Assembly (NCBI GenBank): GCA_963805085.1 | Contig: CAWDTA010000002.1 | Span: 1,696,001 to 1,760,000, forward strand | DNA from: an uncultured Veillonellaceae bacterium | Lineage (GTDB): Bacteria; Bacillota; Negativicutes; JARBTT01 | Reading direction: 5' to 3' | DNA: 64,000 nt | Part shown: one piece after another, positions 16,631-50,103 of the stretch | How positions within the stretch are numbered: position 1 is the first letter of the stretch | Layout: each line of letters starts with the position of its first letter | Program-made: the position numbers and the translations under genes | Notes under the pieces: model-generated | Told to the model about the DNA's origin: nothing | What the model saw: the letters and a program-made list of their open reading frames with translations, nothing else | The model's database searches: none

Positions 16631-16650
16631 TATGATATAGTATTGTAACG

Positions 16651-31909: not shown

Positions 31910-31915
31910 GAAAGC

Positions 31916-33006: not shown

Positions 33007-33038
33007 ACGGAGAACAAATAAAAAAACTTCAATAAAAA

Positions 33039-33583: not shown

Positions 33584-33874
33584 ATGGAGTTAATCACAAA
33601 AGGAAGAGCTGGGACATTGGAATCTGGCGATATTTGTGTTGTCGTTGAAAAAACGGATGCTGCAGGGATTGTGATTGATCTTGATAGTTCCGTTGCCAGT
33701 TTATTTGGCAGAGAGATTAAAGAAGTGATTACAAAAACAGTCAGTGACCATGGTTTTAAAGATGGCGTTAAAGTTACCGCAACAGATAAAGGTGCGTTAA
33801 ATTGCACGATCGCGGCAAGAGTGACAGCAGCATTATATCGCGCTGCTGAAAGCACAGAATTTAGTTGGAAGTAG
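33584..33874 (+). CDS. citD: Citrate lyase acyl carrier protein (gamma)
   Basis: AGTLESGD (Ser14), DKGAL.CTI.AR. Confidence 0.95.
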   Translation: MELITKGRAGTLESGDICVVVEKTDAAGIVIDLDSSVASLFGREIKEVITKTVSDHGFKDGVKVTATDKGALNCTIAARVTAALYRAAESTEFSWK

Positions 33875-33905
33875 AAGGCAAACAAAGAAAGGGCTGAGAG
33901 AAAAG

Positions 33906-34808
33906 ATGGCTATTAAACAGAGATTGCGTAGAACCATGATGTTTATCCCTGGAAACAATCCTGGTATGATGCGCGATGCACATATATACGGTTCGGACTC
34001 GATTATGTTCGACCTTGAAGACGCTGTATCGATGGCAGAAAAAGATGCGGCTCGCCTGCTTGTATTTAATGCAATAAAAACAATTGATTATGGAGATACA
34101 GAAGTTGTTGTTCGTATCAATCCACTTAACACACCTTACGGCAAAGCTGATATTGAAGCAATGGTTGTCGCTGGAGCACATGTACTTCGTATGCCAAAAA
34201 CCGAAACAGCAGAAGATATTACCGAATGCGAAGAATATATTGCTGAAATGGAAAAGAAACATGGCATTCCAGTAGGCAAAACACTCATGATGGCAGCAAT
34301 TGAAGGTGCGCTTGGCGTACTCAATGCCTATAAGATTGCTACTTCTTCTGATCGTTTGATTGGTATTGCAATCGGCGCAGAAGATTACTGTGCAAACATG
34401 AAAGCAAATAGAACAAAATCAGGGATTGAGCTTCAGTTAGCACGGGAAACAATTGTAGTTGCCGCACGGGCAGCTGGAATCGATGCACTTGATACAGTGT
34501 TCTCCGATGTGAACGATGAAGAACAACTGATCTATGAAGCTACCTTAGTAAAAGAAATGGGCTTTGATGGCAAATCCGTTATCAATCCTCGTCAGATTGG
34601 TCCAGTACATAAAGTATTTGCACCAACTGAAAAAGAAATTGAAAAGGCAAAACGTATCATTGCCGCAATTAAAGAAGCTGAAGCAAAAGGTTCTGGCGTT
34701 ATCAGCTTGAATGGTAAAATGGTCGACAGACCGGTTGTAATTCGTGCCGAACGTACGATTGAACTTGCAATCGCATCTGGCGTGCTATTACCAGAGGAGG
34801 TAGAGTAA
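33906..34808 (+). CDS. citE: Citrate lyase beta subunit
   Basis: RRTMMFIPGNN, FDLEDAV, GAEDY, GFDGKSVINPRQI. Confidence 0.96.
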   Translation: MAIKQRLRRTMMFIPGNNPGMMRDAHIYGSDSIMFDLEDAVSMAEKDAARLLVFNAIKTIDYGDTEVVVRINPLNTPYGKADIEAMVVAGAHVLRMPKTETAEDITECEEYIAEMEKKHGIPVGKTLMMAAIEGALGVLNAYKIATSSDRLIGIAIGAEDYCANMKANRTKSGIELQLARETIVVAARAAGIDALDTVFSDVNDEEQLIYEATLVKEMGFDGKSVINPRQIGPVHKVFAPTEKEIEKAKRIIAAIKEAEAKGSGVISLNGKMVDRPVVIRAERTIELAIASGVLLPEEVE

Positions 34809-36346
34809 TGAAAAATGCAATCAATCATGAAGTTTCAGCGCAGCTTCTTAAACATTTAGGTTTAGAATTTTACAGTGATAATGGCAAAGGAAAAGATTGC
34901 TCTACATTAAATGAACGTCTTGTAAAGAATGGCAAATTGGTAGATTCTTTAGAAGAAGCGATTAAAAAATCCGGTTTAAAAGATGGCATGACGATTTCTT
35001 TCCATCATCATTTTCGTAATGGTGATTATATTTTAAATATGGTTCTAGATAAATTAGCTAAGATGGGGTTCAAGAATTTAACCGTTGCATCCTCTAGTCT
35101 TTCAACAGCACATGCACCACTCATCGAACATATCAAAAGTGGTGTTGTGACAAAAATCGAAAGCTCTGGGATGCGTGATGATTTAGCAGATGCGATTTCA
35201 CATGGTTTGATGAAAGAACCTGTTATCTTCCGTAGTCATGGTGGACGTGCTTCGGCGATTGCCAATGGTAGTTTGCACATTGACGTGGCATTTCTTGGGG
35301 CACCATCCTCCGATGTTGTAGGGAATGCCAGCGGTGTTTATACTAACCCAGAAGGTAAATCCATCTGTGGTTCTCTCGGTTATGCAAAAGTGGATGCACG
35401 TTATGCAGCTACGACGATTATTCTTACGGATAATATTGTTGCATTTCCGAACGCTCCAGCATCGATTCCAGCAACTGACGTTGATTATGTGGTAAAAGTA
35501 GAGGCACTTGGTGATTCTAGTAAGATTTCTTCTGGTGCTACACGCTTTACCAAAAATCCTCGTGACTTACTGATTGCAGAAGCAGCTGCAAAAGTAATCC
35601 AAGAATCTGGTTACTTTACCGATGGCTTCTCCATTCAAACAGGTTCCGGCGGAGCGGCGCTTGCTGTGACTCGTTTTATCAGCGAAGAAATGGTAAAACG
35701 CAATATCAAAGCTCGGTTTGCGCTTGGTGGTATCACAGGACAAATCGTAAAATTATATGAAGAAGGCTTAATCGGAAAAATTCTTGATGTACAAGGATTT
35801 GATACGATTGCTGCCGAATCTCTAATCAATAATGCAGATCACATTGAAGTAGATGGCAACCAATATGCAAGCCCATTCAATGAAGGCTCCGCAATTCATC
35901 AACTTGATGTTGTTATCCTATCGGCATTAGAAGTTGACGTAAACTTCAATGTTAACGTATTGACTGGTTCTGACGGAGTAATCCGTGGTGCGATCGGTGG
36001 TCATCCAGATACAGCAAGCAAAGCAGCGCTTACCGTGCTTGTATCACCATTGATTCGTGGACGTATTCCTTGTATCTTAGATAAAGTAAATACACTTGTT
36101 ACACCTGGTTCTGTTTGTGACGTGCTCGTTACAGACCAAGGGGTTGCTGTAAATCCTAACCGCCCAGAAGTAAAAGAAAGACTCTTAAAAGCTGGCTTGA
36201 AAGTGACCACAATTGAAGCCTTGAAAGAAAGTGCTGAAAAAGTAGTTGGCATACCTGATCCATTGCAATTTATGGATAAAGTGGTTGCCGTGGTTACGCA
36301 TCCAGATGGTAGAGTATTAGACGTGATTCATGAGGTTAAAGCGTAA
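34808..36346 (+). CDS. citF: Citrate lyase alpha subunit / citrate-ACP transferase
   Basis: GMTISFHHHFRNGD, RSHGGR, QTGSGGA, GGHPDTA. Confidence 0.97.
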   Translation: MKNAINHEVSAQLLKHLGLEFYSDNGKGKDCSTLNERLVKNGKLVDSLEEAIKKSGLKDGMTISFHHHFRNGDYILNMVLDKLAKMGFKNLTVASSSLSTAHAPLIEHIKSGVVTKIESSGMRDDLADAISHGLMKEPVIFRSHGGRASAIANGSLHIDVAFLGAPSSDVVGNASGVYTNPEGKSICGSLGYAKVDARYAATTIILTDNIVAFPNAPASIPATDVDYVVKVEALGDSSKISSGATRFTKNPRDLLIAEAAAKVIQESGYFTDGFSIQTGSGGAALAVTRFISEEMVKRNIKARFALGGITGQIVKLYEEGLIGKILDVQGFDTIAAESLINNADHIEVDGNQYASPFNEGSAIHQLDVVILSALEVDVNFNVNVLTGSDGVIRGAIGGHPDTASKAALTVLVSPLIRGRIPCILDKVNTLVTPGSVCDVLVTDQGVAVNPNRPEVKERLLKAGLKVTTIEALKESAEKVVGIPDPLQFMDKVVAVVTHPDGRVLDVIHEVKA

Positions 36347-36347
36347 C

Positions 36348-36881
36348 ATGTCTCACGCACTATTCGAAGGAATTTCCATAACGTTAGAAGAAGTTTTAAC
36401 AAATAAAGAAGCCCGCGCTGCCTTGCAACGCGAGCTTCTTGCTCAATATAAGAATCCAATCATTTCTTTTACTATCAATATGCCAGGTAGTGTAAAATTA
36501 AACAATGCAAGTCGTCTGTTATACAAGGAAGGCATAGACCGGTTAAAAGATGCGCTGGAACGTGCGTATATTTTAGTTAATGATATTCGGTATGTAGAAA
36601 GTTTTACTGGACTAGAAGCGCTTTTTTCGGTTCGCAGTGATGCGCGGACGTTAAAAAAAATTGCTTGCGGTATTGAAGATCAAGATGCAGTCGGTAGATT
36701 GTTTGATATGGATGTACTCGATGTGGATGGCGTTCCGATCAGTCGCAGTGTACTTGATTTTCCGAAACGAAAGTGCTTAATTTGCCAGCAAGATGCGGTG
36801 ATTTGTGCGCGGTCGCAGCAGCATTCGCCAGAAGAATTATTGAAACAGATTGAAAAAGCTGTTGTAGAAATACAAAAGTAA
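36348..36881 (+). CDS. citX: Apo-citrate lyase phosphoribosyl-dephospho-CoA transferase
   Basis: INMPGSVK, GRLFDMDV, SR...RKCLIC..A..CARS..H. Confidence 0.92.
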   Translation: MSHALFEGISITLEEVLTNKEARAALQRELLAQYKNPIISFTINMPGSVKLNNASRLLYKEGIDRLKDALERAYILVNDIRYVESFTGLEALFSVRSDARTLKKIACGIEDQDAVGRLFDMDVLDVDGVPISRSVLDFPKRKCLICQQDAVICARSQQHSPEELLKQIEKAVVEIQK

Positions 36882-36913
36882 GATCATAAGAGAATGAGCA
36901 AAGGAGAATAGCG

Positions 36914-37954
36914 ATGGAATCTTTTACAGAAGAAACATTTGAATTGCAAGAGTTGCCACAATCATTAAAGAGCAGTCGTAAGCTTGTAGCAGATTTTTTG
37001 GCGAAATTCGATTTAGCCTATGATACCTTAGACTCTTATGTTGGATTATTCGCTGGGGATAAGCTCGTGGCCGGTGCTGGTTATCAAGGGGCAACGATCA
37101 AATGTGTCGCTGTAGATCCTAGCTATCAACAATGCGGTTTATCAAATAAAGTCATTTCGCATTTATGTAGTGAACTATGGACACAAGGGGTATCCAATAT
37201 CTTCGTATTTACCAAACCGAAGAATAGCAACCAATTTACTGGTGCAGGTTTTCATCTCATCGCCAGTTCACCAGCAGCCATTTTGCTAGAGAGTAGTAAG
37301 AACGGCATTACTGACTATGCCAAATCCTTAGAACGTTATCGCCAAACAGGGGTGCAAGGTGCGATTGTGATGAATGGCAATCCATTTACCCTAGGACATC
37401 GATATTTGGTAGAGTGGGCGGCGCGGCAGTGTGATCATCTGCATATCTTTGTGGTGGAAGAGGATAAGTCTAGTTTCCCATTTCATGTGCGAAAAAGGCT
37501 AATCGAAGAAGGGACCAAAGACCTCAAAAATGTGACGGTTCATAGTGGTGGAGAGTATATCATATCGTCAGCGACCTTTCCTTCCTACTTTATCAAGGAA
37601 TTATCCGAGATTGCCAAAACCTATGCCGAGCTTGACCTCAATATTTTTGCCAAGCATATTGCGCCAGCACTTTCGATTACAAAACGTTTCGTCGGTAGTG
37701 AGCCAACCGATCCATTGACCTGCGCTTATAATGAAATCATGCAGATAGAATTGCCACAGTTTGGTGTTGAACCGATAATTCTCGAACGCAAAGAAAAAGA
37801 AGGGCAACCAATATCGGCCTCAAGGGTACGCAAACTCCTTGGACAAAATGATATTACTGGTGCAAGTAAGCTTGTGCCAAGGGCTACTGCAACGTATTTT
37901 TTAACAACAGAAGGTCAGCAGATTATCGAAAAGTTACAACATGCGGTCGGTTGA
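36914..37954 (+). CDS. citC: [Citrate (pro-3S)-lyase] ligase
   Basis: IVMNGNPFTLGH.YL, ISSATFPSYF, RFVGSEP, ISASRVR. Confidence 0.96.
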   Translation: MESFTEETFELQELPQSLKSSRKLVADFLAKFDLAYDTLDSYVGLFAGDKLVAGAGYQGATIKCVAVDPSYQQCGLSNKVISHLCSELWTQGVSNIFVFTKPKNSNQFTGAGFHLIASSPAAILLESSKNGITDYAKSLERYRQTGVQGAIVMNGNPFTLGHRYLVEWAARQCDHLHIFVVEEDKSSFPFHVRKRLIEEGTKDLKNVTVHSGGEYIISSATFPSYFIKELSEIAKTYAELDLNIFAKHIAPALSITKRFVGSEPTDPLTCAYNEIMQIELPQFGVEPIILERKEKEGQPISASRVRKLLGQNDITGASKLVPRATATYFLTTEGQQIIEKLQHAVG

Positions 37955-38840
37955 GAGGAGCAGTTTGATGAGTTTATCACCACAGGAGATTGGCCGTTTT
38001 GGAGTGCAGTCCCTTTTATATGAAGTAGCCGTTACGCCCAAACCAGGCTTGGTTGATCGCCATAGTGCCGGTGCCCATAAGGATATGGATTGCTTTACTT
38101 TTTTAGCGAGTACGGCAGCTTTAGCACCTTATTTTACGCAGTTTGCCCAAAAAGGAGCAGAGTGTGCCAAGGAAGAACCAAAAGCTTTGTTTCGGGCGAT
38201 TCGCCCAATTGGTATTGCGGCGGAACGTTGTATGTTTGCCGCGACAACTGGTGTCAATACCCATAAAGGGGCGATTTTTTCTCTTGGGTTAGTTTGCAGC
38301 GCTGCGGGCTGTCTTGTGGCAAACGGGACAGAACTTACGCCAGAAAATGTTGCAGGATATGTGGGTAATATGATAGCGGGGATTTGTGCAGAGGAATATC
38401 ACGGGATCGAAGCAAAGCAAAATCTGACCAAGGGCGAACAAATCTATCTGCGTTATGGCTTAACAGGCGTGCGCGGTGAAGCGGAACAAGGTTTTCCGAG
38501 TGTACTAAGATATTCATATCCGGTACTGGAAGATTGCTTGCTATGCGGTAGATCGATCAATGAAAGCATGTTGCAGGCGTATCTGCAGTTAGCTGGAAAT
38601 GTAGATGATACCAACGTTTTAGGACGTCACGATATGGAAGTTTCTACGTATGTAAAAGCAGAAACGCAAAAAATTTTACACGTTGGCGGTGCGTTAGAGC
38701 CAGAAAATATAGCTTTGCTAGAAGCGATGGATGATGATTTTATCACGAAGAATATCAGCCCGGGCGGTTGTGCTGATTTATTGGCATTAACGATGCTTTT
38801 ATTTTCACTAGCAAATCCTACATGGAAATATAAAGTGTAG
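37941..38840 (+). CDS. citG: Triphosphoribosyl-dephospho-CoA synthase, copy 1
   Basis: EV..TPKPGLVD, GVNTHKGAIF, G.RGEA, SPGGCADLLA. Confidence 0.96.
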   Translation: MRSVERSSLMSLSPQEIGRFGVQSLLYEVAVTPKPGLVDRHSAGAHKDMDCFTFLASTAALAPYFTQFAQKGAECAKEEPKALFRAIRPIGIAAERCMFAATTGVNTHKGAIFSLGLVCSAAGCLVANGTELTPENVAGYVGNMIAGICAEEYHGIEAKQNLTKGEQIYLRYGLTGVRGEAEQGFPSVLRYSYPVLEDCLLCGRSINESMLQAYLQLAGNVDDTNVLGRHDMEVSTYVKAETQKILHVGGALEPENIALLEAMDDDFITKNISPGGCADLLALTMLLFSLANPTWKYKV

Positions 38841-39010
38841 AAAATGTACCTTGCTCTACTTGTCTGATCTTGTATCAACATAAACTGACCTAGATCAGAC
38901 TTGGTGGACACTTAGAACAGCTGATAAAATAATTGCAACAAGGGACAAAATGAATATTTTAGATGAAATAAAAAAGCTTCCGAAATATCGGAAGCTTTGA
39001 ATTATCTATA

Positions 39011-39052
39011 GAGCTGATAATAGGATTCGAATCTCGACCTGCTCATTACGAA
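39011..39052 (-). tRNA. Degenerate 3' tRNA fragment, probably Thr(CGT) (att-site remnant)
   Basis: Minus strand: TTCGTAATGAGCAGGTCGAGATTCGAATCCTATTATCAGCTC, with anticodon loop CGT and TTCGAATC T-loop; stems eroded. Confidence 0.6.
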
Positions 39053-39540
39053 CAGTACACATAATACTGGTCTAAATGAAGCCTACAGTCGAGTGTTCAA
39101 GAAGAACGGCGCGGCGGGGGCAGATGACATCCTCAAGCCTTTTGTTTATAAAACAGAATCTACTACTTTATCTATACTTTTAAGTATATGATTATCTGGT
39201 GTTTTATCATATATAATGGAATATAAACTTAGTTGTTTTGATTTAGGTCTAAGCATGCCAAAAACCCACTTTTTTGATGCATCTCATGCCTTTGTTATGG
39301 ACGAAATATGTGTTATTTTGCCATAATTTTACTTATTGAGTGTTTTTAACCTGTCCACTTGTCCTATTACATTTTAGGTAGTGTATAAGAATTTAATGTC
39401 AATGTTTATAAAAAGATTTACATATATGGTTTTTTATTGTAAGATAAGAGCAAATAAATAACAAATAAGGCGTCAAATAACAAAATGAAATTTAGAACAA
39501 TTTAGTAAGTTTTAGATCAGAATTACTAAGAGGTGGAGAC

Positions 39541-39690
39541 ATGATAGTTAAAAAAATTATAGAGGCTTTAGAACTTCAGAAAGAAAAACTCAACAATTTT
39601 CATTATGGACAGATTATCATGAGTATTCAAGATGGCGAAGTTAATCGGATAGATTATCATGAAAGCTATTTGATTAAACATAAAAAATAG
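39541..39690 (+). CDS. Small DUF2292/YezD-like protein (49 aa)
   Basis: GAGGTGG RBS; MIVKKIIEALELQKEKLNNFHYGQIIMSIQDGEVNRIDYHESYLIKHKK matches the YG.I.I.IQDG.V..I pattern. Confidence 0.65.
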   Translation: MIVKKIIEALELQKEKLNNFHYGQIIMSIQDGEVNRIDYHESYLIKHKK

Positions 39691-39717
39691 ATTAGTAGGC
39701 TGACTAGAATAACTGGA

Positions 39718-39755
39718 AGCCGATACTGTCATTTAATGATAGTGTCGGCTTTTTA
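39718..39755 (+). terminator. Intrinsic terminator upstream of the accessory cluster
   Basis: AGCCGATACTGTCAT-TTA-ATGATAGTGTCGGCT-TTTT. Confidence 0.8.
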
Positions 39756-40033
39756 TTTACTCAAGGATGATGACGCCAATTTTAAATTGGGACATGCGCT
39801 AGTCTATTATTAGGTTACAATTTTAGAGCAATGATTTCTTGGTAAAGTATCAAAACCAAATTTTTAAATGAATGCCTATAGTTTATAGCCTATTGTATTG
39901 ATATTTATTTAAGGATAACAACGCTCGATATTGGGATGATTGTGATGGCATATGGTACAAAATTCTAAAATAGAAGGTGGGATTTTTCAAACGAAATTGT
40001 CTAGAACAATTAAAAAAATGGGGAGATGAAAAA

Positions 40034-40321
40034 ATGCAAGAAAAATACGAAGTAATTGAAAAAGTAGGATCTGACATGTCTTATGATTTAGTCGTTGAGG
40101 TAATAAATAAAGTAGAAAAAAAAGTTAAGATAGAATGTTATCAACCGCAATTAAAAAATCAAGTAGATGAGTTTTATAATTCAATAAAAGACGAGGTATA
40201 TAAAATACTAAATGGATTTGAGTATTCTATAAATATAATAATATCAAATAAAGTTCCGGATAAATTTGTATGGTTAGGGAGGATAGAAGGAGCGGTACAA
40301 AAAGTAAAAGAAATGTCCTAA
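40034..40321 (+). CDS. Divergent CitD-like acyl carrier protein
   Basis: VGSDMSYDLVVEV aligns with CitD AGTLESGDICVVV (Ser kept); NKVPDKFVWLGRIEGAV aligns with DKGALNCTIAARVTAAL; 95 aa; upstream of citE-like gene. Confidence 0.65.
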   Translation: MQEKYEVIEKVGSDMSYDLVVEVINKVEKKVKIECYQPQLKNQVDEFYNSIKDEVYKILNGFEYSINIIISNKVPDKFVWLGRIEGAVQKVKEMS

Positions 40322-40353
40322 GGCAAAAATGCAAATGGAGGTATTGAATAATA

Positions 40354-41229
40354 ATGTTGGAAAAAAATTTATGGGGTGCTCATTTATTTATGCCAGCGAA
40401 TAATGCGGGATATATTTTTTATACACCATTAATTAATGCGAAAAACATCATTTTGGATTTAGAATATGCAACTAATATTGATAAAAAAATAGAAGCAAGA
40501 TACTTGTTAAAATATGCAATTTCATATTTGAAAAAATTACGACCAGATATGAACGTTTGTGTCAGGATTAATCTACCTTGGATAAAGAAATTTTGCTATG
40601 AAGACATAAAAGCAATAATTGATGCAGAACCTGATTCATTGAGAATACCATCAGTAAGGGATAGAAAGGATATAGAATTAATTGAAAACATAATTGATGA
40701 TTTGGAACAAAAAAATGGGAAAAATTATGATAAAATAAAATTTCAGCCAATGATAGAGAGCCCTAAAGGATTTTCTAATATTCGTGAAATTGCAGGTGCA
40801 TCAAAGCGAAATATAGCTTTATGCTTAGGGGGAGAAGATTGGGCATATAATGTAGGTTTAGAACGGCATAAACATTCGCGAGAACTAGAATATGTGAGAG
40901 TTGAAATGGTAACAGTTGCTGCAGAATATGGTTTGTTTTCGGTGGATACTGTTTACCCGTGGCTTGATGATAAAGTAGGATTTGAAAAAGATTCTAAAAT
41001 AGCAAGAGAGTATGGAATGTGTGCAAGGGCTATCCAAAACCCTAAACAGTTAAACGAAGCAAATGAAATATATAAGCCTTCAGAAGAACGCTATAAGTGG
41101 GCGGAAGATTTGCTATCTAGTGTAGTTAAAGAATATGTTGATGATTGTGAAGTTTTTATCTTCCATAACAAAATTATTGACTCGCAGGAACTTGTTCAAG
41201 CTAATAAAATTTTAGCTTTTCAAAAATGA
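40354..41229 (+). CDS. CitE-like (HpcH/HpaI aldolase/citrate lyase family) enzyme
   Basis: LFMPANN, LDLEYA, VRIN, MIESPKG, LGGEDW, DTVY, NPKQL. Confidence 0.88.
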   Translation: MLEKNLWGAHLFMPANNAGYIFYTPLINAKNIILDLEYATNIDKKIEARYLLKYAISYLKKLRPDMNVCVRINLPWIKKFCYEDIKAIIDAEPDSLRIPSVRDRKDIELIENIIDDLEQKNGKNYDKIKFQPMIESPKGFSNIREIAGASKRNIALCLGGEDWAYNVGLERHKHSRELEYVRVEMVTVAAEYGLFSVDTVYPWLDDKVGFEKDSKIAREYGMCARAIQNPKQLNEANEIYKPSEERYKWAEDLLSSVVKEYVDDCEVFIFHNKIIDSQELVQANKILAFQK

Positions 41230-41255
41230 TAAATTTGAAAAAGGAGGGTTGAAGA

Positions 41256-41651
41256 ATGAAAGAAATTATTATTCCGAGTGATATTTCTAAAGCGACTGCT
41301 AGGTATGTTCCAGGAATAAAAACTAGTGTTACTCAAAAAACAAATTTTTTATTTATAAGTGGACAAGTATCAATTAATAAAGATGGTAATATTGTAGGAA
41401 AAGGAGAGCCTGAAAAACAAACTATTACGGCATTTGAAAATATACGAAAGGTTTTAAAAAAAGCAGGTGGGGATATTGAGAATCTTGTCGCAATTACTAT
41501 TTATATTACTGATTTAGAAAATCTTAAAGTTATTTCAAACGTAAGAAACAACTACTTTGAAAAATCTGCAGTTACAAGTACTCTAGTTGAAGTTAAAGGT
41601 CTGGTAAATCAGGAGTTGTTAGTTGAGATTAGTGGTCTAGCGGTATTGTAG
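41256..41651 (+). CDS. RidA/YjgF family protein
   Basis: LFISGQV, QT..AFENI..VL..AG, VRNNYF, STLVEVKGL..LLVEI. Confidence 0.92.
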   Translation: MKEIIIPSDISKATARYVPGIKTSVTQKTNFLFISGQVSINKDGNIVGKGEPEKQTITAFENIRKVLKKAGGDIENLVAITIYITDLENLKVISNVRNNYFEKSAVTSTLVEVKGLVNQELLVEISGLAVL

Positions 41652-41709
41652 TATAAAAGTAACTAGATCAAAACAATAATAAGCGATTCAAGGGAGGAGA
41701 ATAAGTAGT

Positions 41710-42789
41710 ATGTTGAGTGAATTGAGGAAACTAGATGGTGAAATCCGTGTAGAAGATATTAAAGAGATTGCATATAAGTTTAATATCGTATCTTTGGGAA
41801 AAAGTGACATAGTAATTTCTAATGAGGACTGCAAAAATGTTTTGATAAGATCTGTTGATCACAATCAGTTAGAAAAAGATTGGGTTATATTACAAGATAT
41901 TTGCCAAAAATATCAGAATAGAAAAATGGATAGAAGTATTAATTCAATTAAAGTGTGTAGAAAAAACAAAGAAAAATATTATAGCTATGATGAAATATTA
42001 GAAAGTGGTTTATTGAAAATTATGCCAAATGGAAATATTGTATTGTTGGGTGATTTAGTTGAACTGCTCTCAAGTATAGACAATTATATCTTAAAGTTTG
42101 CCAAAAGCAATCACGCAACACAATTTTATTCAAGTCCTTTGTGGAAAGAAAACGAATTGAATGGTTTTGGATATATGAAAGATGATTTGATGTTGTACAA
42201 ATTGAATCATATTAATGATAGTAATAATGATCATTATTGGCAAATGGCAGTATGTGATAATATATGGAGATATTTAAAAGATAGTGACATAAAAGATTCT
42301 CAAATTTTCACATCAATAGGAGTATGTAGTAGAAGAGAAGGTAGTCAATACTTTATATTAGAAAGAATGAAGTTATTTCACATGAGAGAAGTTGTTTTTA
42401 TTGGGACATCTGAGAGTGTTCAAAACTTTAGAGACAAAATGATGGAGTTTTCTATAAAAATGATAAATGATTTTGAATTAGATTCATATATTGAAGATGC
42501 AAATGATCCATTTTTCTTAAATAATGAAGACTTAAACTGTGAAAATGAATATCATTATCCAGGTGATGTAAAAAAAGAATTGAGAGCTAATCTTTATGGG
42601 AAAAAATCCCTTGCGATAGCGAGTTTCAATATTCATGGAGATTATTTTACCCAAAATCTCAATATAAATTCAGAAAAGCATGATAGCCTCTGGACAACTT
42701 GTGCTGCATACGGAATAGAAAGGTGGGTATGGGCGGTTTTATCACAGCATGGTCCATATAAGAAAAATTGGCCTAAAATATTAATTTAA
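41710..42789 (+). CDS. Class II aaRS-like (atypical SerRS-type) amino acid:[carrier protein] ligase
   Basis: AVC, CSRREG (motif 2), RM..FHMREVVFIG, ANDPFF, K.EL, AIASFNIHGDYF, TTCAAYGIERW..A...QHG (motif 3); no obvious tRNA-binding coiled coil. Confidence 0.8.
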   Translation: MLSELRKLDGEIRVEDIKEIAYKFNIVSLGKSDIVISNEDCKNVLIRSVDHNQLEKDWVILQDICQKYQNRKMDRSINSIKVCRKNKEKYYSYDEILESGLLKIMPNGNIVLLGDLVELLSSIDNYILKFAKSNHATQFYSSPLWKENELNGFGYMKDDLMLYKLNHINDSNNDHYWQMAVCDNIWRYLKDSDIKDSQIFTSIGVCSRREGSQYFILERMKLFHMREVVFIGTSESVQNFRDKMMEFSIKMINDFELDSYIEDANDPFFLNNEDLNCENEYHYPGDVKKELRANLYGKKSLAIASFNIHGDYFTQNLNINSEKHDSLWTTCAAYGIERWVWAVLSQHGPYKKNWPKILI

Positions 42790-42801
42790 TAGGAGCCTTT
42801 A

Positions 42802-43341
42802 GTGAAAGATAAACTGATTCTGAAAGAAATTTTAGATTTGAAAAGTGAATTATATATAGTTAAAAATAAATTGATTAGTTTGATTAGTAAACATGGAACA
42901 TTAGTGAGCGTTGGGTTAAATATACCGGGCTGGCCTAAATATAATGATAAGATAGAACAATATTTTAATAGTTGTTTTCCTATAATTAGGAAAAAAATGA
43001 GACTAGATGTGGTTTTATATAAATATATAAATAAGGCAGGTGTATTTTATTTTTTGGAATCTATACAAACTCCTATAGCTTTAAAAAAAGTAGCAATTGA
43101 AATAGAAGAAATGGATTGTTACTTTAGATTATTAGATATTGACTGTTATAATAACGAGGGAATATCTATTAATAGAAGAGCTTTAGGATATGAAGAGAGA
43201 AAATGCTTATTATGTAATAATGATGCAAGTTATTGTATTGGAAATAACATACATGATAGTTTGTCTTTAAGAAAAAAAGCAATGAGTATAATAGTGGAGA
43301 GTAGAGAAAAATATCATAATTTTTTGGGTATATCTGAGTGA
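42802..43341 (+). CDS. Second CitX-like holo-ACP synthase
   Basis: LNIPGWPK, LKK.AI.IEE, RLLDID, R..LGYEERKCLLC...A..C....H. Confidence 0.85.
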   Translation: MKDKLILKEILDLKSELYIVKNKLISLISKHGTLVSVGLNIPGWPKYNDKIEQYFNSCFPIIRKKMRLDVVLYKYINKAGVFYFLESIQTPIALKKVAIEIEEMDCYFRLLDIDCYNNEGISINRRALGYEERKCLLCNNDASYCIGNNIHDSLSLRKKAMSIIVESREKYHNFLGISE

Positions 43342-43482
43342 CAGATATACCTTTGTTTTTACGGAAAAAGCCACTTGGCTCTAAAACAATAATAGGAAAA
43401 TCATACATGGATAATTTCAGGTGTTGATCTTAAAGGCTTAAGTATGTATGAATAACCGTCAAAAATATTTGGAGGGAATGTT

Positions 43483-44661
43483 ATGATACAAGGGAAAAGT
43501 AAAGTTGCTTTGAACGATAAGGTACTGGTTGTGATATTAGGTTTGGCAGGGTTGATTTCTGCAGCGGATAACTGGGTTGTCTCGCCAATTTTGCCAGCAA
43601 TCGCAAATGGATTTGGAGTTTCTATTTCCCAAGTTGGAGTTGTTTTAACAGCATACATGATACCTTATGGAATGATGCAACCCGTTTATGGATTCCTTAG
43701 TGACCGCTGGGGGAAAGCCAATATATTGAAATGGATTATTTATGGACTTTCTTTAGGAACTATTGGCTGTGCTCTTTCGAATTCTTTATGGATGTTGTGT
43801 TTCTGGCGAGCTATTACGGGCTTTTTTGCTGCAGGAATTATTGCTGTGTCTTTAGCATTAATTGGTGATAGTGTGCCAGTCTTGGAGCGTCAGATCCATG
43901 TTGGTAGGTTTATGGGGATTGTTTTTCTAGGGCAGGGTTTGAGTGTTGGGCTAGGGGGGATTTTTGCTGAATACATTAGTTGGCGAGTTGCATTTATTAT
44001 TTTCGCCGGAGCTGCACTCTGTATTGTCTTCTTTTTGAAGAAACTGCCCAAGGATTCTCCTAATCCTATAAATCGTATCAATCGTAATTTTTTTTCTGAA
44101 GTTAAGCAGGTAACTTTAACTCCAAAAGGGAGAGTCATTTTCCCATTAGCTCTGGCTGCGGGATTTTTATTGCTTGGTCTATATAGTTATTTGGGATCCT
44201 TCCTACATGAGGTTACAGGGTTGGATTATTTACAGGTTGGGATAGTAGTAATGTTTTACGGCTTTGCTTGTCTATTCGCAGGTTCTCAAGTTGGAAATTT
44301 TGGGAAAAAAATTGGACAAAAAAAGGTTATCATAAATGGTGAATTACTTGCTGTAGTTGCGGCTTTACTCTTAGCAGCTTTTCCATATTGGCAAACTGGG
44401 TGGTTAGCTACAGTCAGTCTAGGGGTCGGATATATTTTCATTCAATCTACCTTAGCAACAATTGCTTTTGATGTAGCAACTGAGAGTAAGGGGCTTCCTT
44501 CAGCGTTGGTTGGATTTGGACTTTTTGGTGGAGGTGGCTTAGGCACTGCATTTAGTAGTTTGCTGCTTTTACAATATGGGTATCAAACTCTTTGGATGGT
44601 TTTGGGTGCTGGAATAATACTTTTCATTTTTATTACAGCTAGTTTGCAATTTGAGTGTTGA
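43483..44661 (+). CDS. MFS transporter (drug:H+ antiporter-like)
   Basis: SPILPAIA..F, YGFLSDRWGK motif A, about 12 TM. Confidence 0.92.
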   Translation: MIQGKSKVALNDKVLVVILGLAGLISAADNWVVSPILPAIANGFGVSISQVGVVLTAYMIPYGMMQPVYGFLSDRWGKANILKWIIYGLSLGTIGCALSNSLWMLCFWRAITGFFAAGIIAVSLALIGDSVPVLERQIHVGRFMGIVFLGQGLSVGLGGIFAEYISWRVAFIIFAGAALCIVFFLKKLPKDSPNPINRINRNFFSEVKQVTLTPKGRVIFPLALAAGFLLLGLYSYLGSFLHEVTGLDYLQVGIVVMFYGFACLFAGSQVGNFGKKIGQKKVIINGELLAVVAALLLAAFPYWQTGWLATVSLGVGYIFIQSTLATIAFDVATESKGLPSALVGFGLFGGGGLGTAFSSLLLLQYGYQTLWMVLGAGIILFIFITASLQFEC

Positions 44662-44695
44662 AACAATGATGAGACGAAGGAACTAGGTTAAAGTG

Positions 44696-44745
44696 TTGAA
44701 AAAGTAGTAGTGAGCACACCTGATTCATTACAATTTACAGATAAG
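44696..44745 (+). pseudogene. Degenerate citF 3' fragment fused to citC tail
   Basis: GAAAAAGTAGT..GCACACCTGATTCATTACAATTTACAGATAAG resembles citF 36236-36280 GAAAAAGTAGTTGGCATACCTGATCCATTGCAATTTATGGATAAA. Confidence 0.65.
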
Positions 44746-44768
44746 GCAGATTATCGAAAAGTTACAAC

Positions 44769-45677
44769 ATGCGGTCGGTTGAGAGGAGTAGTTTGATGAG
44801 TTTATCACCACAGGAGATTGGCCGTTTTGGAGTGCAGTCCCTTTTAAATGAAGTAGCCGTTACGCCCAAACCAGGCTTGGTTGATCGCCATAGCGCCGGT
44901 GCCCATAAGGATATGGATTGCTTTACTTTTTTAGCGAGTACGGCAGCTTTAGCACCTTATTTTACGCAGTTTGCCCAAAAAGGAGCAGAGTGTGCCAAGG
45001 AAGAACCAAAAGCTTTGTTTCGGGCGATTCGCCCAATTGGTATTGCGGCGGAACGTTGTATGTTTGCCGCGACAACTGGTGTCAATACCCATAAAGGGGC
45101 GATTTTTTCTCTTGGGTTAGTTTGCAGCGCTGCGGGCTGTCTTGTGGCAAACGGGACAGAACTTACGCCAGAAAATGTTGCAGGATATGTGGGTAATATG
45201 ATAGCGGGGATTTGTGCAGAGGAATATCACGGGATCGAAGCAAAGCAAAATCTGACCAAGGGCGAACAAATCTATCTGCGTTATGGCTTAACAGGCGTGC
45301 GCGGTGAAGCGGAACAAGGTTTTCCGAGTGTACTAAGATATTCATATCCGGTACTGGAAGATTGCTTGCTATGCGGTAGATCGATCAATGAAAGCATGTT
45401 GCAGGCGTATCTGCAGTTAGCTGGAAATGTAGATGATACCAACGTTTTAGGACGTCACGATATGGAAGTTTCTACGTATGTAAAAGCAGAAACGCAAAAA
45501 ATTTTACACGTTGGCGGTGCGTTAGAGCCAGAAAATATAGCTTTGCTAGAAGCGATGGATGATGATTTTATCACGAAGAATATCAGCCCGGGTGGTTGCG
45601 CGGATTTATTGGCATTAACGATGCTTTTATTTTCACTAGCAAATCCTACATGGAAGTATAAGATAAATAAAAAATAA
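44769..45677 (+). CDS. citG: Triphosphoribosyl-dephospho-CoA synthase, copy 2
   Basis: Nearly identical to 37941-38840 (Y26N, different last residues). Confidence 0.95.
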   Translation: MRSVERSSLMSLSPQEIGRFGVQSLLNEVAVTPKPGLVDRHSAGAHKDMDCFTFLASTAALAPYFTQFAQKGAECAKEEPKALFRAIRPIGIAAERCMFAATTGVNTHKGAIFSLGLVCSAAGCLVANGTELTPENVAGYVGNMIAGICAEEYHGIEAKQNLTKGEQIYLRYGLTGVRGEAEQGFPSVLRYSYPVLEDCLLCGRSINESMLQAYLQLAGNVDDTNVLGRHDMEVSTYVKAETQKILHVGGALEPENIALLEAMDDDFITKNISPGGCADLLALTMLLFSLANPTWKYKINKK

Positions 45678-45887
45678 AAAATACCCTAAAAATACCCTAT
45701 AGAATAAGCACAAAAGGAGAGTGTTCATTCTATAGGGCATTTTTCATTCGATCATTTCCAATTGTTTAAGTAAAATAGCTTTATCAAAAATATAAATACA
45801 TATTTAGATAAATTGGAGAAAAACTATTTTATTCGAGCTTACATCAGGTAAACAAATTTTTATAGATAGAGTATTGGCTATGAATAA

Positions 45888-45916
45888 GTATAAAAAGGAG
45901 TATTCAACAAATACTA
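45888..45916 (+). promoter_or_regulatory. Possible forespore sigma-G promoter
   Basis: GTATA-17-AATACTA upstream of a germinant receptor operon. Confidence 0.4.
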
Positions 45917-45962
45917 TGAAGGAAATATTAACCTATATAGTAAATGTAAGGAGGTAGGGGAG

Positions 45963-47588
45963 GTGAAGCGGAAGCAAACTATTGGTATTAAGATAAAAAA
46001 GTTGTTGCAAAAAATTATTAAATATATTATGCAGGCATCGGATGAGGCAGAAACTGAGTTTATAGAACCAAGTCAAAGCATGATGAAGCAGCGAATATCA
46101 CAAAACTTAGAAGATAATGAAGCTTTTTTCAAAAATATATTTGATAAGTCATCTGATATTATTTTTCGTAACTTTCAAGTAGGCAAAAATCAGGCTGGCT
46201 TACTTATTTTTATAGATGGTCTTATTAATAGCGAAGCAGTGAATTCAGATGTACTAAGACCCCTAATCCAATATGGCAATAATGCAAATCAAGAAGAAAT
46301 ATTAAAAGAAAGTAATATTAAGAATATTTTACAGAATCAAGTTATTACTACGGCGCAACTAAGTGGAGGCAAAACAAACGAAGAAGTAGTGAAAAGCGTT
46401 CTAACAGGGGATGTAGCAATTTTAATCGATGGGATGGGGCAGGCCATTTTTGCCAGTATGCGCCAATGGGATAAACGCAGTGTGGATGAACCACAGGTCG
46501 AACCTGTTATACGGGGACCGCGGGAAGGTTTTACAGAAAGCCTAAGGACGAATACCAGCATGGTTCGAAGAAGGTTAAAAACTCCTACTTTAAAAACTGA
46601 GCTTATGAAGGTTGGTAGACTATCGCAAACTGATGTTGTCATTATTTATCTTACAGGTATTTGCGATGAAAGCTTAGTTGACGAAATTCGCAAAAGAATC
46701 AGCCAGATTGATATTGATGCCATCTTGGATAGTGGTTATATTGAAGAATTAATTGAAGATAATCCATCATCTGTTTTTCCTCAACTTGCCCATACCGAAC
46801 GACCGGACAAGCTAGCTAGTAGTTTGCTTGAGGGTCAAGTTGGGATTATGGTTGATAATACACCGTTTGCCTTAATTGCGCCTCACCCTTTTTTCCGAAT
46901 GATGCAAGCGCCTGATGATTATTATGAACGTGCCTTAGGGATGAGTCTTATTCGGCTGCTTCGCTATGTATTCTTATTTATTGCACTACTGATGCCTGCT
47001 GTGTATATAGCGTTATCAACCTTTCATCAGAGTATGATTCCCACGGAGCTTTTACTTTCTATGGCAGCTTCTCGAGAAAATATTCCCTTCCCAGCTTTTA
47101 TTGAAGCGATGATAATGGAGATATTCTTTGAGGCTTTACGGGAAGCAGGCGTACGTCTGCCCCGACCGGTAGGGCAAACGGTAAGTATTGTCGGGGCACT
47201 AGTCATAGGACAAGCTGCCATCCAGGCTGGTATTGTGTCAGCTCCCATGGTTATTACGGTCTCTATTACAGGAATTGCCTCCTTCACTGTGCCGCAGTTT
47301 AATCAAGCTGTAGCTATTCGCGTACTTCGTTTTATGTTGATGATTTTAGCTGGCATGCTTGGTCTTTACGGGGTATTCATGGGTTTTCTAGTTATTTTAA
47401 TCCATATGGCAAGTTTACGGTCTTTTGGTGTTCCGTATCTATCGCCGATAGCTCCACTGGAATTGTCTAGTCTTAAAGATGTATTTATCCGGGTTCCTTG
47501 GTGGGCGATGGTGACTCGCCCGGGATTTACAGTTAATGAGGATATCAAGCGGATGAAAAGTTCGCTGCGTCCTCGGCCTCCCAAATAG
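45963..47588 (+). CDS. Spore germination receptor A subunit (GerKA-like)
   Basis: IRGPREGFTESL.TN, TERPD, PFPAFIEA, REAGVRLP. Confidence 0.95.
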   Translation: MKRKQTIGIKIKKLLQKIIKYIMQASDEAETEFIEPSQSMMKQRISQNLEDNEAFFKNIFDKSSDIIFRNFQVGKNQAGLLIFIDGLINSEAVNSDVLRPLIQYGNNANQEEILKESNIKNILQNQVITTAQLSGGKTNEEVVKSVLTGDVAILIDGMGQAIFASMRQWDKRSVDEPQVEPVIRGPREGFTESLRTNTSMVRRRLKTPTLKTELMKVGRLSQTDVVIIYLTGICDESLVDEIRKRISQIDIDAILDSGYIEELIEDNPSSVFPQLAHTERPDKLASSLLEGQVGIMVDNTPFALIAPHPFFRMMQAPDDYYERALGMSLIRLLRYVFLFIALLMPAVYIALSTFHQSMIPTELLLSMAASRENIPFPAFIEAMIMEIFFEALREAGVRLPRPVGQTVSIVGALVIGQAAIQAGIVSAPMVITVSITGIASFTVPQFNQAVAIRVLRFMLMILAGMLGLYGVFMGFLVILIHMASLRSFGVPYLSPIAPLELSSLKDVFIRVPWWAMVTRPGFTVNEDIKRMKSSLRPRPPK

Positions 47589-47627
47589 GTGAGCTTTATC
47601 AAATGTTCATTAGTAGAGGGCGATGTG

Positions 47628-48857
47628 ATGAAGAAAATAGGAATTCTATTGCTGGTAATCATGAATGCAGTACTGCTTTCTGGATGCTGGGATCGAGTTG
47701 AGATTAATGATGTTGCGATTGTCATAGCTGTAGGTGTAGATAAAACAGATAATGGCGATATTTGTCTTTCGCTACTCCTACCTGCCCCTAAAAAATTGTC
47801 CTCTAGCGGTGGAAGTGGAGGAGGTAGTGGTGGTGACAACAATGCACCAGCACTCGTGATCTCTGAATCTGGAAAAAGTATCATGGCTGCATATCGCAAG
47901 CTTCAGGCAAAGTTACCGCGTGAAATTCTTTTTTCACATGTTCGGTTCATTATTATTGGTGAAAGACTAGCGCAAGATGGAGTTGCTGGTATCTTGGATT
48001 TTTTCTCAAGGCCAAGACAATCCAATTTAAGGGCGCATATTTTATTTACGAAAGAAAACATTGACGAAGTGCTAGGGGGGGAGCCGGGAATAGAGCAATC
48101 AGTTGCGGAAATGATTCGTGAGGAAGGGGAAATGGGAATTGGTGCTGGAATTGATCTAAAGGATTTCATTAATATGATGACTGAGGAAGGCGTAAATCCT
48201 TGGGGGGGACAATTGGTGAAACTACCATTGGCAGTAGAAACTAAGAAAAATGAGAAAACTGAAGCATCAAAGCCCCAAAAATCGTATTCTTCTATTAGAG
48301 GAGCGGCGGTGTTTGATAAGGATAAATTAGTTGGCTGGATCAATTATGATGAGGTTAGAGGCGTGTTGTGGCTTCGGGATGAAGTGAAAAGGGGTATAGG
48401 TGCGGTTAACGTGAATGTTCCGGAAGAAAAAGGCGGAGGGAAAATGGGCATACGTATCCTTGAGGCTAAGACAAGGTTACAACCTAAGATCAACGAGGAT
48501 GTACTTACGATGCATGTGTACATTGAGGCTACAACGATAATTTATGATAATTCATCTAAGATGGACTTAAGTGATCCTAAGAGCATTTATGATGCAGAAA
48601 AAATGGCAGAGAAGCGTATTAAAGAAAGGGCTCAAAGTGCATTGGATAAGCTCCAAATACAAGTAAGAAGTGATATTTTGGGCTTTGGGACAGCAGTTTA
48701 TCGGGAGTATCCTAAGGAATGGAAAGAAAAATATAAGGATAATTGGCACGAGGAGTTTCCGGAACTTAACGTAGAGGTTGCGTGCAAGGTTTCAATACCA
48801 CGAGTCGGTTTTGTCACGAATTCGTTAACGCGGAAAGAGGACGAAATTATAAAATAA
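47628..48857 (+). CDS. Spore germination receptor C subunit (lipoprotein)
   Basis: LLSGCWDRVEIND; D.LGFG. Confidence 0.93.
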   Translation: MKKIGILLLVIMNAVLLSGCWDRVEINDVAIVIAVGVDKTDNGDICLSLLLPAPKKLSSSGGSGGGSGGDNNAPALVISESGKSIMAAYRKLQAKLPREILFSHVRFIIIGERLAQDGVAGILDFFSRPRQSNLRAHILFTKENIDEVLGGEPGIEQSVAEMIREEGEMGIGAGIDLKDFINMMTEEGVNPWGGQLVKLPLAVETKKNEKTEASKPQKSYSSIRGAAVFDKDKLVGWINYDEVRGVLWLRDEVKRGIGAVNVNVPEEKGGGKMGIRILEAKTRLQPKINEDVLTMHVYIEATTIIYDNSSKMDLSDPKSIYDAEKMAEKRIKERAQSALDKLQIQVRSDILGFGTAVYREYPKEWKEKYKDNWHEEFPELNVEVACKVSIPRVGFVTNSLTRKEDEIIK

Positions 48858-48867
48858 GAGGTCATTT

Positions 48868-49974
48868 ATGGAGAGAATATCAAATTATCAATTATTTGCG
48901 ATTACAACGCTATTTCAAGTCGGTACGACAATTATATTTGGTTTTTCATCGGCTGCTGGACGAGATGCTTGGATTTCCGTTATAATATCTACCTGCTTGG
49001 GGACAATGATAATTTTTCTGTATCTTGCACTTATGCGAATGCATCCGGGGTTAACATTAGTAGAATGGTATCCACGGCAATTTGGGCGCTGGTTAGGTAC
49101 TCCGATAGCTTGGATGTATCCTCTTCTATTCATCTATGATGCAGGACGTGTCTTGGGAGATTTACGGGATTTAATACCAACGACTATTTTACCAACTACG
49201 CCAAGTGGCGTTGTTTTAACAATTTTTATGGCCGTAGTAGCTTATGGTTTGTTTTGTGGAATAGAAACCATTGGTAGACTGGGAGAGGTATGGCTGCCAG
49301 TACTTACTTTATTCTTTATTCTGGAGCTGATATTTATTTTTAGCTCAGAGATTACTCATATAGAAACATTACAGCCTCTAGTAGGCCAGGGCTGGAAAAA
49401 AATTTGGAGTAGTGTATGGCCGCTTGGTATAACACAGAGCTTTGGAGAAACGCTTGGGCTAGCTATGATTTGGCCATTAGTAAAACAGCCAGAGAAGATT
49501 ATGAAAACTACGATAGCTGCTTCTTTGATGGTTGGCTTCTTTATTGCATTGCTTGATATGGTAGCGATAATGGTTTTAGGCGAAGCTACGTTTTCTCGTA
49601 GCATTTATCCGTTATATGTATTGATTCAACAAATTAATATTGCAAATTTCCTCCAAAATTTAGATGCATTGGGTGTTATGTACTTCTTAACTACTTCATT
49701 TTTTAAAATATCAATTCATTTATTTACCGCTATTTATGGAATTCAGAAGCTTACGCGGGTTAAAAATAGTCGTGTTTTCATTTTACCTATAGTAGTTATT
49801 GTGTTGTATTTGGGAATGAAGATGGCATCCAGTGTTTTAGATCATATTGAAGCAGGGCTTAAAGTTTTGCCTTATAATTTATGGATTCTTTTGTTTTTGG
49901 TATTACCAGGTATACTTTTTATAGTAGCGTGGATTAGACAGAAGCTGGGTAAAAAACAGAAGGAGATGAAGTAA
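48868..49974 (+). CDS. Spore germination receptor B subunit
   Basis: GRDAWIS, LPTTP, GIETIGR, 10-TM pattern. Confidence 0.92.
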   Translation: MERISNYQLFAITTLFQVGTTIIFGFSSAAGRDAWISVIISTCLGTMIIFLYLALMRMHPGLTLVEWYPRQFGRWLGTPIAWMYPLLFIYDAGRVLGDLRDLIPTTILPTTPSGVVLTIFMAVVAYGLFCGIETIGRLGEVWLPVLTLFFILELIFIFSSEITHIETLQPLVGQGWKKIWSSVWPLGITQSFGETLGLAMIWPLVKQPEKIMKTTIAASLMVGFFIALLDMVAIMVLGEATFSRSIYPLYVLIQQINIANFLQNLDALGVMYFLTTSFFKISIHLFTAIYGIQKLTRVKNSRVFILPIVVIVLYLGMKMASSVLDHIEAGLKVLPYNLWILLFLVLPGILFIVAWIRQKLGKKQKEMK

Positions 49975-49977
49975 CAG

Positions 49978-50103
49978 ATGGATAAATTTTTGTATCCGTG
50001 GCAGTCACATGTTATGAAAGAACATCCGTGGGCGATGCCGCTATTTATGTTAACCGTAGCATTGCTTCTTTCCATCGTTACTTGGATTAGACAAAAAAAG
50101 TAA
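49978..50103 (+). CDS. 41-aa membrane microprotein downstream of gerB
   Basis: AGGAG RBS; MDKFLYPWQSHVMKEHPWAMPLFMLTVALLLSIVTWIRQKK. Confidence 0.5.
   Translation: MDKFLYPWQSHVMKEHPWAMPLFMLTVALLLSIVTWIRQKK

Follow-up and report, generated by a model that had tools for sequence, protein, structure and literature searches.

We analyzed a window of 64,000 nucleotides from an uncultured Veillonellaceae bacterium (assembly GCA_963805085.1, contig CAWDTA010000002.1, positions 1,696,001 to 1,760,000 of the forward strand), in which gene calls and Pfam matches identify a canonical citrate lyase operon upstream of an insert of 5.9 kb. A direct repeat (37918-38835 and 44746-45665, 99% identical) consists of the resident citG and its copy, so that the insert is flanked by two citG genes. 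Judged from its sequence, the insert would encode a self-contained pathway based on a carrier protein, one that has no described equivalent, in which a ligase of the seryl-tRNA synthetase (SerRS) type is paired with a carrier related to CitD of citrate lyase. The features of the region are as follows.

33584-33874, citD of the canonical cit operon
33906-34808, citE of the canonical cit operon
34808-36346, citF of the canonical cit operon
36330-36881, resident citX of the canonical cit operon
36914-37954, citC of the canonical cit operon
37941-38840, plus strand, citG1 (PF01874, E = 2.7e-82), with the left copy of the direct repeat
38973-38998, minus strand, terminator-like hairpin just within the insert (pattern scan only)
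39133-39368, minus strand, insertion sequence (IS) remnant, a repeat with four further copies in the genome
39541-39690, plus strand, 49-aa open reading frame (ORF), weakly DUF2292-like (E = 8e-4, below cut-off)
39715-39753, strong terminator-like hairpin of the 49-aa ORF (pattern scan)
40034-40321, plus strand, 95-aa putative carrier of a new CitD-related family (profile-profile match to CitD)
40354-41229, plus strand, CitE-like protein of the HpcH/CitE family, a predicted Mg-dependent C-C lyase or synthase (PF03328, E = 1e-30)
41256-41651, plus strand, Rid-family protein (PF01042, E = 7e-25)
41710-42789, plus strand, SerRS-type class II ligase of 359 aa (PF00587, 20 bits, below cut-off)
42802-43341, plus strand, CitX2, a predicted dedicated CitX paralogue (holo-carrier synthase; PF03802, E = 6e-30)
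43326-43352, plus strand, terminator-like hairpin after CitX2 (pattern scan only)
43483-44661, plus strand, major facilitator superfamily (MFS) transporter (MFS_1, E = 1e-48)
44769-45677, plus strand, citG2 (CitG, E = 1e-81), with the right copy of the direct repeat

An earlier note on this DNA, made from the letters alone, had placed the seven genes from the carrier to citG2 at these positions on the plus strand, and the gene calls agree with it throughout. Its description of six AT-rich genes followed by a second citG was correct as to common orientation and the position of citG, but AT-richness (28-32% GC) is limited to the first five genes, while the MFS gene has about 40% GC, as do the flanks. 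The second citG, moreover, is a 99% duplicate of the resident gene and not a diverged paralogue. Three transcription units are predicted, namely the 49-aa ORF, a five-gene operon ending at the hairpin at 43326-43352, and the MFS gene together with citG2; both the hairpins and these units are pattern or consensus matches only.

The note had also stated that the insert lacks CitF, CitC, a conventional acyl or peptidyl carrier protein (ACP, PCP) and a phosphopantetheinyl transferase (PPTase). No CitF or CitC gene was found in the insert, and none of the six frames of 38800-45700 matched a phosphopantetheine-carrier model at E<=1, in a scan whose three positive controls scored 1e-9 to 5e-21 and which did not include PPTase models. 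Searches for RNA elements gave no hint of a substrate in the form of a riboswitch or T-box, because nothing in the insert or in seven related loci reached the Rfam gathering scores; within 38800-40100 the sub-threshold matches were at chance level only. One T-box leader does exceed its gathering score (137 bits; 16425-16631, minus strand), at a position distant from the insert. A search of public sequencing runs with 39500-43400 listed no RNA run and three DNA runs with 7-8% of the sampled words each, a result uninformative on expression or habitat.

The carrier protein and its predicted maturation

The product of 40034-40321 is, on the profile evidence, a CitD-type carrier and the founder of a new small family, its likeness to CitD lying mainly at the level of profiles rather than single sequences. 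No homologue of the 95-aa protein turned up among 5.8 billion proteins in a word-based search, a genome-wide search with PF06857 did not pick up its ORF, a hidden Markov model built from 16 CitD sequences matched it at 13.9 bits only (E = 1.4e-4), and a search of the ESM Atlas gave no usable match. A 97-aa neighbour of CitX in a Bacillota metagenome-assembled genome (MAG) is homologous to it (BLASTP, 7e-10), and a profile of these two sequences, searched against 1.84 billion proteins, yielded a family of 22 representatives. Five residues (G12, S16, D18, P75 and R83) are invariant in the 19 aligned members, and the family shares the motif GSDxSYDL(I/V)VE, in which Ser16 is the proposed attachment site.

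When this family was compared with 16 canonical CitD sequences by hhalign, the two profiles matched over their full length (86 columns) with a probability of 94.9% (E = 4.2e-8); repeating the comparison with alignments that the tool had made itself returned 94.0% (E = 1.4e-7). Ser16 was aligned on the column of CitD Ser14, the serine of AGTLES, which is the established site of prosthetic-group attachment in CitD, and the C-terminal ARxEAA helix was aligned as well. The controls all remained at or below 1%, with 1.0% for the reversed profile, at most 0.7% for 20 column shuffles, and 0.5% for a profile of phosphopantetheine carriers. The suggestion of the earlier note that this protein is a CitD-like carrier with its attachment serine kept is thereby upheld. 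An AlphaFold2 (AF2) model of the carrier, with a mean predicted local distance difference test score (pLDDT) of 93.7, has four strands and two helices.

CitX2 belongs to the family of enzymes predicted to modify such carriers, scoring 104.6 bits against PF03802 (cut-off 25) and 86.9 bits against the TIGR03124 equivalog model, which is below the cut-off of 105.25. It is only 26.5% identical to the resident CitX. Both the window genome and the MAG genome have kept a separate CitX with their ordinary citrate lyase, which fits a dedicated CitX for the diverged carrier. A dedicated paralogue had been proposed in the earlier note. The assignment of the carrier is supported by a natural fusion, the 262-aa protein P0019, in which a CitX domain (residues 10-161) is followed by a carrier of this family (residues 172-260). 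No longer fused forms of the carrier were found, a weak negative because the same search did not recover P0019 itself.

These components are comparable to those of citrate lyase (CitCDEFXG), which shares with the insert a small carrier with its serine in a G-x3-S-x-D motif, maturation by CitX and CitG, and a CitE-family beta subunit acting on a carrier-bound thioester. The insert differs in having neither CitF nor CitC, in an apparent loading enzyme that is a homologue of aminoacyl-tRNA synthetases (aaRS), in a carrier that PF06857 does not recognize, and in a CitE-like protein far under the TIGR01588 cut-off. Malonate decarboxylase (carrier MdcC, with MdcB and MdcG) is the second known user of 2'-(5''-phosphoribosyl)-3'-dephospho-coenzyme A (CoA) on a CitD-like carrier; the insert lacks its decarboxylase and carboxyltransferase subunits and would load its carrier by other chemistry. 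To our knowledge, citrate lyase and malonate decarboxylase are the only established uses of this prosthetic group. A Geobacter genome paper reports citG and citX without citrate lyase and suspects a second function (PMC2996986).

Elsewhere in the genome of the window (L109, at about 902 kb and outside the window) lie genes for a CitG/MdcB-like protein, for an MdcC-like carrier, and for what is likely the beta subunit of malonate decarboxylase, presumably MdcD to judge from the N-terminal sequence. This prosthetic group would then be served by three types of carrier within one genome.

The ligase and the CitE-like enzyme

The ligase at 41710-42789 has a class II aaRS core, although its PF00587 score is under the cut-off, and NCBIfam models for amino acid-[ACP] ligase and for archaeal-type SerRS both give about 109 bits, far under their cut-offs. 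Among sequences of the PDB, phmmer matched its C-terminal half to type-2 SerRS (3w3s, 3e-18) and to the glycine:[carrier protein] ligase Bll0957 (4h2w, 3e-14). An AF2 model (pLDDT 82.9) submitted to Foldseek likewise retrieved methanogen-type SerRS (3w3s, E = 2e-20) and Bll0957 chains, the latter with template modelling (TM) scores of 0.73-0.74 normalized to the target; the structural alignment with Bll0957 has 21% identity. Both lines of comparison agree with the earlier assignment of this gene as resembling amino acid:[carrier protein] ligases.

Six residues (R208, E210, E227, R338, C182 and C331), including residues of motifs 2 and 3, are invariant in 12 aligned homologues of the ligase. 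C182, E227 and C331 align with the Cys, Glu and Cys of type-2 SerRS, positions that serve in this lineage as the zinc ligands and bind the amino group of the substrate. Such a ligase would be expected to activate an amino acid. A different reading, in which it loads a non-amino carboxylic acid such as acetate or a hydroxy acid, and thus acts as a non-homologous replacement for CitC in a cut-down CitE/CitD lyase, appears distinctly improbable. The ligase does occupy the logical position of CitC beside genes of the CitD, CitE, CitX and CitG types, its substrate is not established, and it is far from the characterized amino acid:[carrier protein] ligases (21% identity to Bll0957). Against this stand the invariance of the Cys-Glu-Cys positions, with their role in amino-group binding, and the characterized relatives, all of which activate amino acids according to a review (PMC9437257).

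The best counterparts of the window ligase remain Bll0957, Bll6282 and Atu2573, which were reportedly described as amino acid:[carrier protein] ligases by Mocibob et al. in 2010 and 2013. Like these, the window ligase has a truncated SerRS-type class II core with the conserved Cys-Glu-Cys set and the arginines of motifs 2 and 3, and is encoded beside a small carrier. It differs from them in its apparent partner, which is CitD-related and would mature through CitG and CitX, whereas theirs is a four-helix carrier with a 4'-phosphopantetheinyl group that matures through a PPTase. Compared with the Bll0957 type, a further domain of about 70-110 aa is present at its N terminus, and it belongs to a separate, long-branched clade that is always found beside a CitE-like enzyme. 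A quick maximum-likelihood tree placed all eight ligases that have Cit-type neighbours on one side of a branch, and seven of them formed a clade with a Shimodaira-Hasegawa-like approximate likelihood ratio (SH-aLRT) support of 100. A Streptomyces ligase joins the seven-member clade with a support of 92, a placement less sure because it is a long-branch join.

The neighbouring CitE-like protein scores 107 bits against the HpcH/CitE family (cut-off 25) and 152 bits against TIGR01588, well below the 443 of that model, and is 26.6% identical to the resident CitE. Its residues R71, E135 and E161-D162 are invariant in eight aligned sequences, genuine CitE included, and its nearest solved structures are CLYBL (5vxc, 8e-22) and malyl-CoA lyase (4l9y, 3e-17). 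The active-site Arg, Glu and Asp are shared with CLYBL, malyl-CoA lyase and citramalyl-CoA lyase. CLYBL-type enzymes use free CoA thioesters, but the CitE-like gene is in every case linked to a carrier protein and to the enzymes that would mature it. The MFS transporter is the best conserved component of the insert, being 67% identical to its counterpart in the MAG and 56% identical to that of Clostridium felsineum.

Recurrence of the gene set and origin of the island

The neighbourhoods of 83 loci with homologues of the ligase were surveyed, and six of these (L001, L002, L003, L085, L086 and L087) contain Cit-type proteins. These loci and a plasmid locus of a cultured Clostridium hold the following genes.

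Bacillota MAG (L002): CitE-like, ligase, CitG, CitX, 97-aa carrier, Rid, MFS
Clostridium felsineum DSM 794, megaplasmid p337: MFS, CitE-like, ligase, CitG, CitX, 91-aa carrier
Streptomyces sp. (L003): ligase (25% identical), Pfam-recognized CitD/MdcC-type ACP (2.3e-14), CitE-like, CitX, fusion of YrdC and a short-chain dehydrogenase/reductase (SDR), CitG, UbiD homologue
Metagenome contig (L085): non-ribosomal peptide synthetase (NRPS)-like protein of the adenylation-thiolation-reductase (A-T-R) type, CitE-like, ligase, CitG, CitX, contig end
L086, L087 and L001: partial sets, CitG included

The linkage of ligase, CitE-like enzyme, CitX, CitG and CitD-type carrier is conserved, and the co-occurrence in other genomes that the earlier note had asked about is found on p337, in the Bacillota MAG, in Streptomyces and on metagenome contigs. 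This conservation bears on the view that the ligase and the CitD-like set are merely unrelated neighbours, with the ligase charging a tRNA or a phosphopantetheinyl carrier encoded elsewhere. Such a view could draw on the N-terminal domain of the ligase, which is absent from Bll0957, and on L001, where a ligase and a CitE-like gene stand without an adjacent CitX or carrier. We consider it very unlikely, as at least three phyla are represented among the seven loci in which the ligase lies beside CitG or CitX, no tRNA gene is present in 20 kb of the window (30000-50000) or in the five related loci scanned, and the ligase, at 359 aa against 477-527 aa in the matched SerRS chains, appears too short for a SerRS with a tRNA-binding domain. 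Small ORFs for phosphopantetheine-type carriers, moreover, occur at 54 of the 83 homologue loci no more than 1.5 kb from the ligase, and at none of the six Cit-type loci. Two annotated loci with distant homologues have an ACP or a PPTase directly beside the ligase.

The surroundings of these loci vary. The C. felsineum locus adjoins a gene for a PucR-type regulator. The Streptomyces module is flanked by a LysRS-MprF fusion (3569-6937 of L003), the Sua5/YrdC-SDR fusion (10178-11827), and a UbiD-family decarboxylase (12797-14287), which may be tailoring enzymes or unrelated neighbours. On L085 the module is preceded, within 12-7004, by a phosphoenolpyruvate-utilizing enzyme and a protein of 1638 aa that combines adenylation, PP-binding and reductase domains, and judging from these genes the setting looks like a secondary-metabolite cluster. 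Upstream of the MAG module, 3889-8593 of L002 holds a nitrogenase-like gene of the component-1 type (5415-6740), a 509-aa ORF (3889-5418), an ATP-binding cassette (ABC) permease, and an NMT1-type binding protein. A link to sulphur metabolism, considered on account of the DUF2292-like ORF of the window and the nitrogenase-like and ABC transporter genes of L002, was rejected as nothing ties those genes to the module.

The gene set is rare. The ligase was found in none of 40 other related genomes, and among 401 genomes sampled from the phylum a full-length match occurred only in the genome of the window itself, with matches to the C-terminal half only in two others. In a relative of the same genus, citC, citG and the gerA genes are contiguous (92% identity) and the insert is absent. 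In the window, two successive operons downstream of citG2 (45963-49974 and 50334-53053) resemble gerA-type genes for spore-germination receptors, their translations having been judged by eye, and these would place the host among spore formers.

Comparison with this relative reveals a pattern in the differences between citG1 and citG2. Between 37961 and 38774 they differ at six positions, at each of which citG1 has the base of the relative and citG2 does not, while from 38828 on the pattern is reversed, with citG2 agreeing with the relative and citG1 differing. The body of citG2 thus has six differences from the native sequence, and its 3' end and the DNA downstream are native. Polarized mismatches of this kind would result if incoming DNA carried a citG of slightly different sequence and a single crossover took place within it, which suggests integration of the Campbell type. 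The island was acquired horizontally and recently, apparently by one crossover through its citG copy. The segment 38836-40033 had no match among plasmids by blastn.

The IS remnant at 39133-39368 shares 78-80% identity with its four other copies in the genome, and of a transposase gene it retains only some 45 codons at the 5' end (39149-39283, minus strand); one copy elsewhere in the genome forms the 5' end of a gene for a 519-aa transposase (L114, 78-1637). The frame 39024-39188 had been entertained as a remnant of a group II intron reverse transcriptase, and was dropped since it has no NCBIfam match and the adjoining repeat is the IS remnant.

That the island is an artefact of assembly, or is decaying and silent, could be argued from a genome that is 83% complete with 6% contamination, from the 0.9-kb flanking repeat and deviating GC content, and from the IS remnant within the insert. 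All seven genes nevertheless have intact frames, the citG copies differ at defined positions as a real crossover predicts, the IS remnant is one member of a repeat family found in this genome, and the same module is present on complete plasmids of cultured strains, so that we regard this explanation as extremely unlikely.

A proposed carrier-protein pathway

Taking these observations together, we think it probable, if by no means assured, that the ligase charges a phosphoribosyl-dephospho-CoA carrier with an amino acid, that the CitE-like enzyme carries out C-C chemistry on the resulting thioester, and that the MFS transporter exports the product. In such a pathway, CitG would make 2'-(5''-triphosphoribosyl)-3'-dephospho-CoA, and CitX2 would attach the prosthetic group to the invariant Ser16 of the 95-aa carrier, as family membership predicts for both. 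The SerRS-type ligase, probably zinc-dependent, would activate a small amino acid with ATP, a role suggested by homology and conserved gene order, and would then form a thioester with the terminal thiol of the prosthetic group, thereby standing in for the CitC (and CitF) of citrate lyase. The CitE-like enzyme, in which the Mg and substrate-binding residues are kept, is predicted to perform enolate chemistry of the Claisen or aldol type on the aminoacyl thioester. Most simply, it would join this thioester to an oxo-acid or aldehyde by condensation; release of the product and its export by the conserved MFS transporter would follow.

Several points weigh against this pathway, the evidence for which is computational throughout. 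The 95-aa protein has no Pfam or NCBIfam match, PF06857 at E<=0.1 included, and the profile of its family finds nothing among PDB sequences at E<=0.1. Foldseek gives no match to its model at E<=0.001, the best being an RNase P protein (E = 0.017, TM 0.44), and MdcC (5vit_C), which is present in the PDB, is not among the matches listed. The ligase reaches 109.3 bits against NF005479, for which the cut-off is 357, over residues 195-356 only, and its residues 1-69 form an extra small beta-alpha-beta-beta-alpha domain in the AF2 model. On L085 no carrier gene is seen before the contig ends, and the Anaerolineae genome that holds L001, of unclear completeness, has no CitX or CitD match and a CitG fragment at a contig end. 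The repeat-flanked arrangement comes from the assembly of a genome that is 83% complete with 6% contamination. Finally, the minimal loci contain no obvious release enzyme, whether thioesterase or transferase; release by the CitE-like enzyme is an assumption.

The Rid protein adds a further point of this kind. In the earlier note it was a RidA that removes enamine or imine by-products, and membership of the family (PF01042) is confirmed, but the window protein has a serine aligned with the essential arginine in three PDB homologues. The corresponding Arg105 of E. coli TdcF is described as essential for imine hydrolysis (PMC4433059). The Rid protein of the MAG keeps the arginine, and a Rid gene is present in two of the four carrier-holding loci, with none seen in those of C. 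felsineum and Streptomyces. Because of the replaced arginine and the missing genes, a role in clean-up is doubtful, and the Rid-family gene would be an accessory outside the core pathway.

The same parts could also work in reverse, for breakdown or detoxification. The ligase would then load a beta-hydroxy or otherwise substituted amino acid, either imported by the MFS transporter or made in the cell, and the CitE-like enzyme would cleave it by a retro-aldol or retro-Claisen reaction. The physiological reaction of CitE is indeed the cleavage of a carrier-bound thioester (citryl-S-ACP), the island adjoins the catabolic cit operon, and the C. felsineum locus has its PucR-type neighbour, regulators of this type often controlling catabolic genes. 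Each turnover, however, would cost ATP and then stall, because neither a transferase resembling CitF nor a thioesterase is present to release the acyl group left on the carrier. The MFS transporter is closest to efflux models of the drug/H+ antiporter type (all scores below cut-offs), and the Streptomyces and metagenome loci are set among tailoring or NRPS-like genes (the A-T-R protein, the YrdC-SDR fusion and the UbiD homologue). A catabolic role is unlikely in our estimation; the biosynthetic direction of the proposed pathway is weakly favoured, given the minimal loci without a CitF-like transferase, the efflux-like transporter, and the tailoring genes at actinobacterial loci.

In its main lines, the interpretation offered in the earlier note is supported, both computational checks suggested there having come out in its favour and none of its computational grounds for refutation having appeared, with aminoacylation, the chemistry of the CitE-like enzyme and export still to be read as predictions from the genes. 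The note knew of no described pathway with this combination, and full-text literature searches, which covered neither subscription papers nor supplements, found no paper linking CitX, CitG or citrate lyase with an aaRS-like ligase.

More tentatively, and with a probability that we would place well short of even, the gene set may represent a third class of phosphoribosyl-dephospho-CoA carrier system and give amino acid:[carrier protein] ligases of the aaRS-like kind their first physiological role. In that event, ATP would drive an aldol or Claisen reaction on a carrier-bound aminoacyl thioester independently of pyridoxal phosphate, for example from a glycyl-S-carrier and an oxo-acid or aldehyde to a beta-hydroxy-alpha-amino acid, and the product would be exported in the minimal clostridial loci and tailored further in actinobacterial clusters. 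A 2022 review calls the role of aaRS-like carrier-protein ligases unknown (PMC9437257).

One small conserved operon, comprising two enzymes, one carrier, two maturation enzymes and one transporter, thus joins two questions, that of what else this prosthetic group is used for and that of what such ligases do. Both are directly testable, because the module is also carried on a plasmid of the cultured C. felsineum DSM 794. For the ligase family, the finding would mean that a clade derived from aminoacyl-tRNA synthetases has switched the type of carrier that it serves. If the CitE-like enzyme does perform enolate chemistry on an aminoacyl thioester, this would be new enzymology. The rare gene set suggests an undescribed route by which a small amino-acid-derived compound is made or processed.

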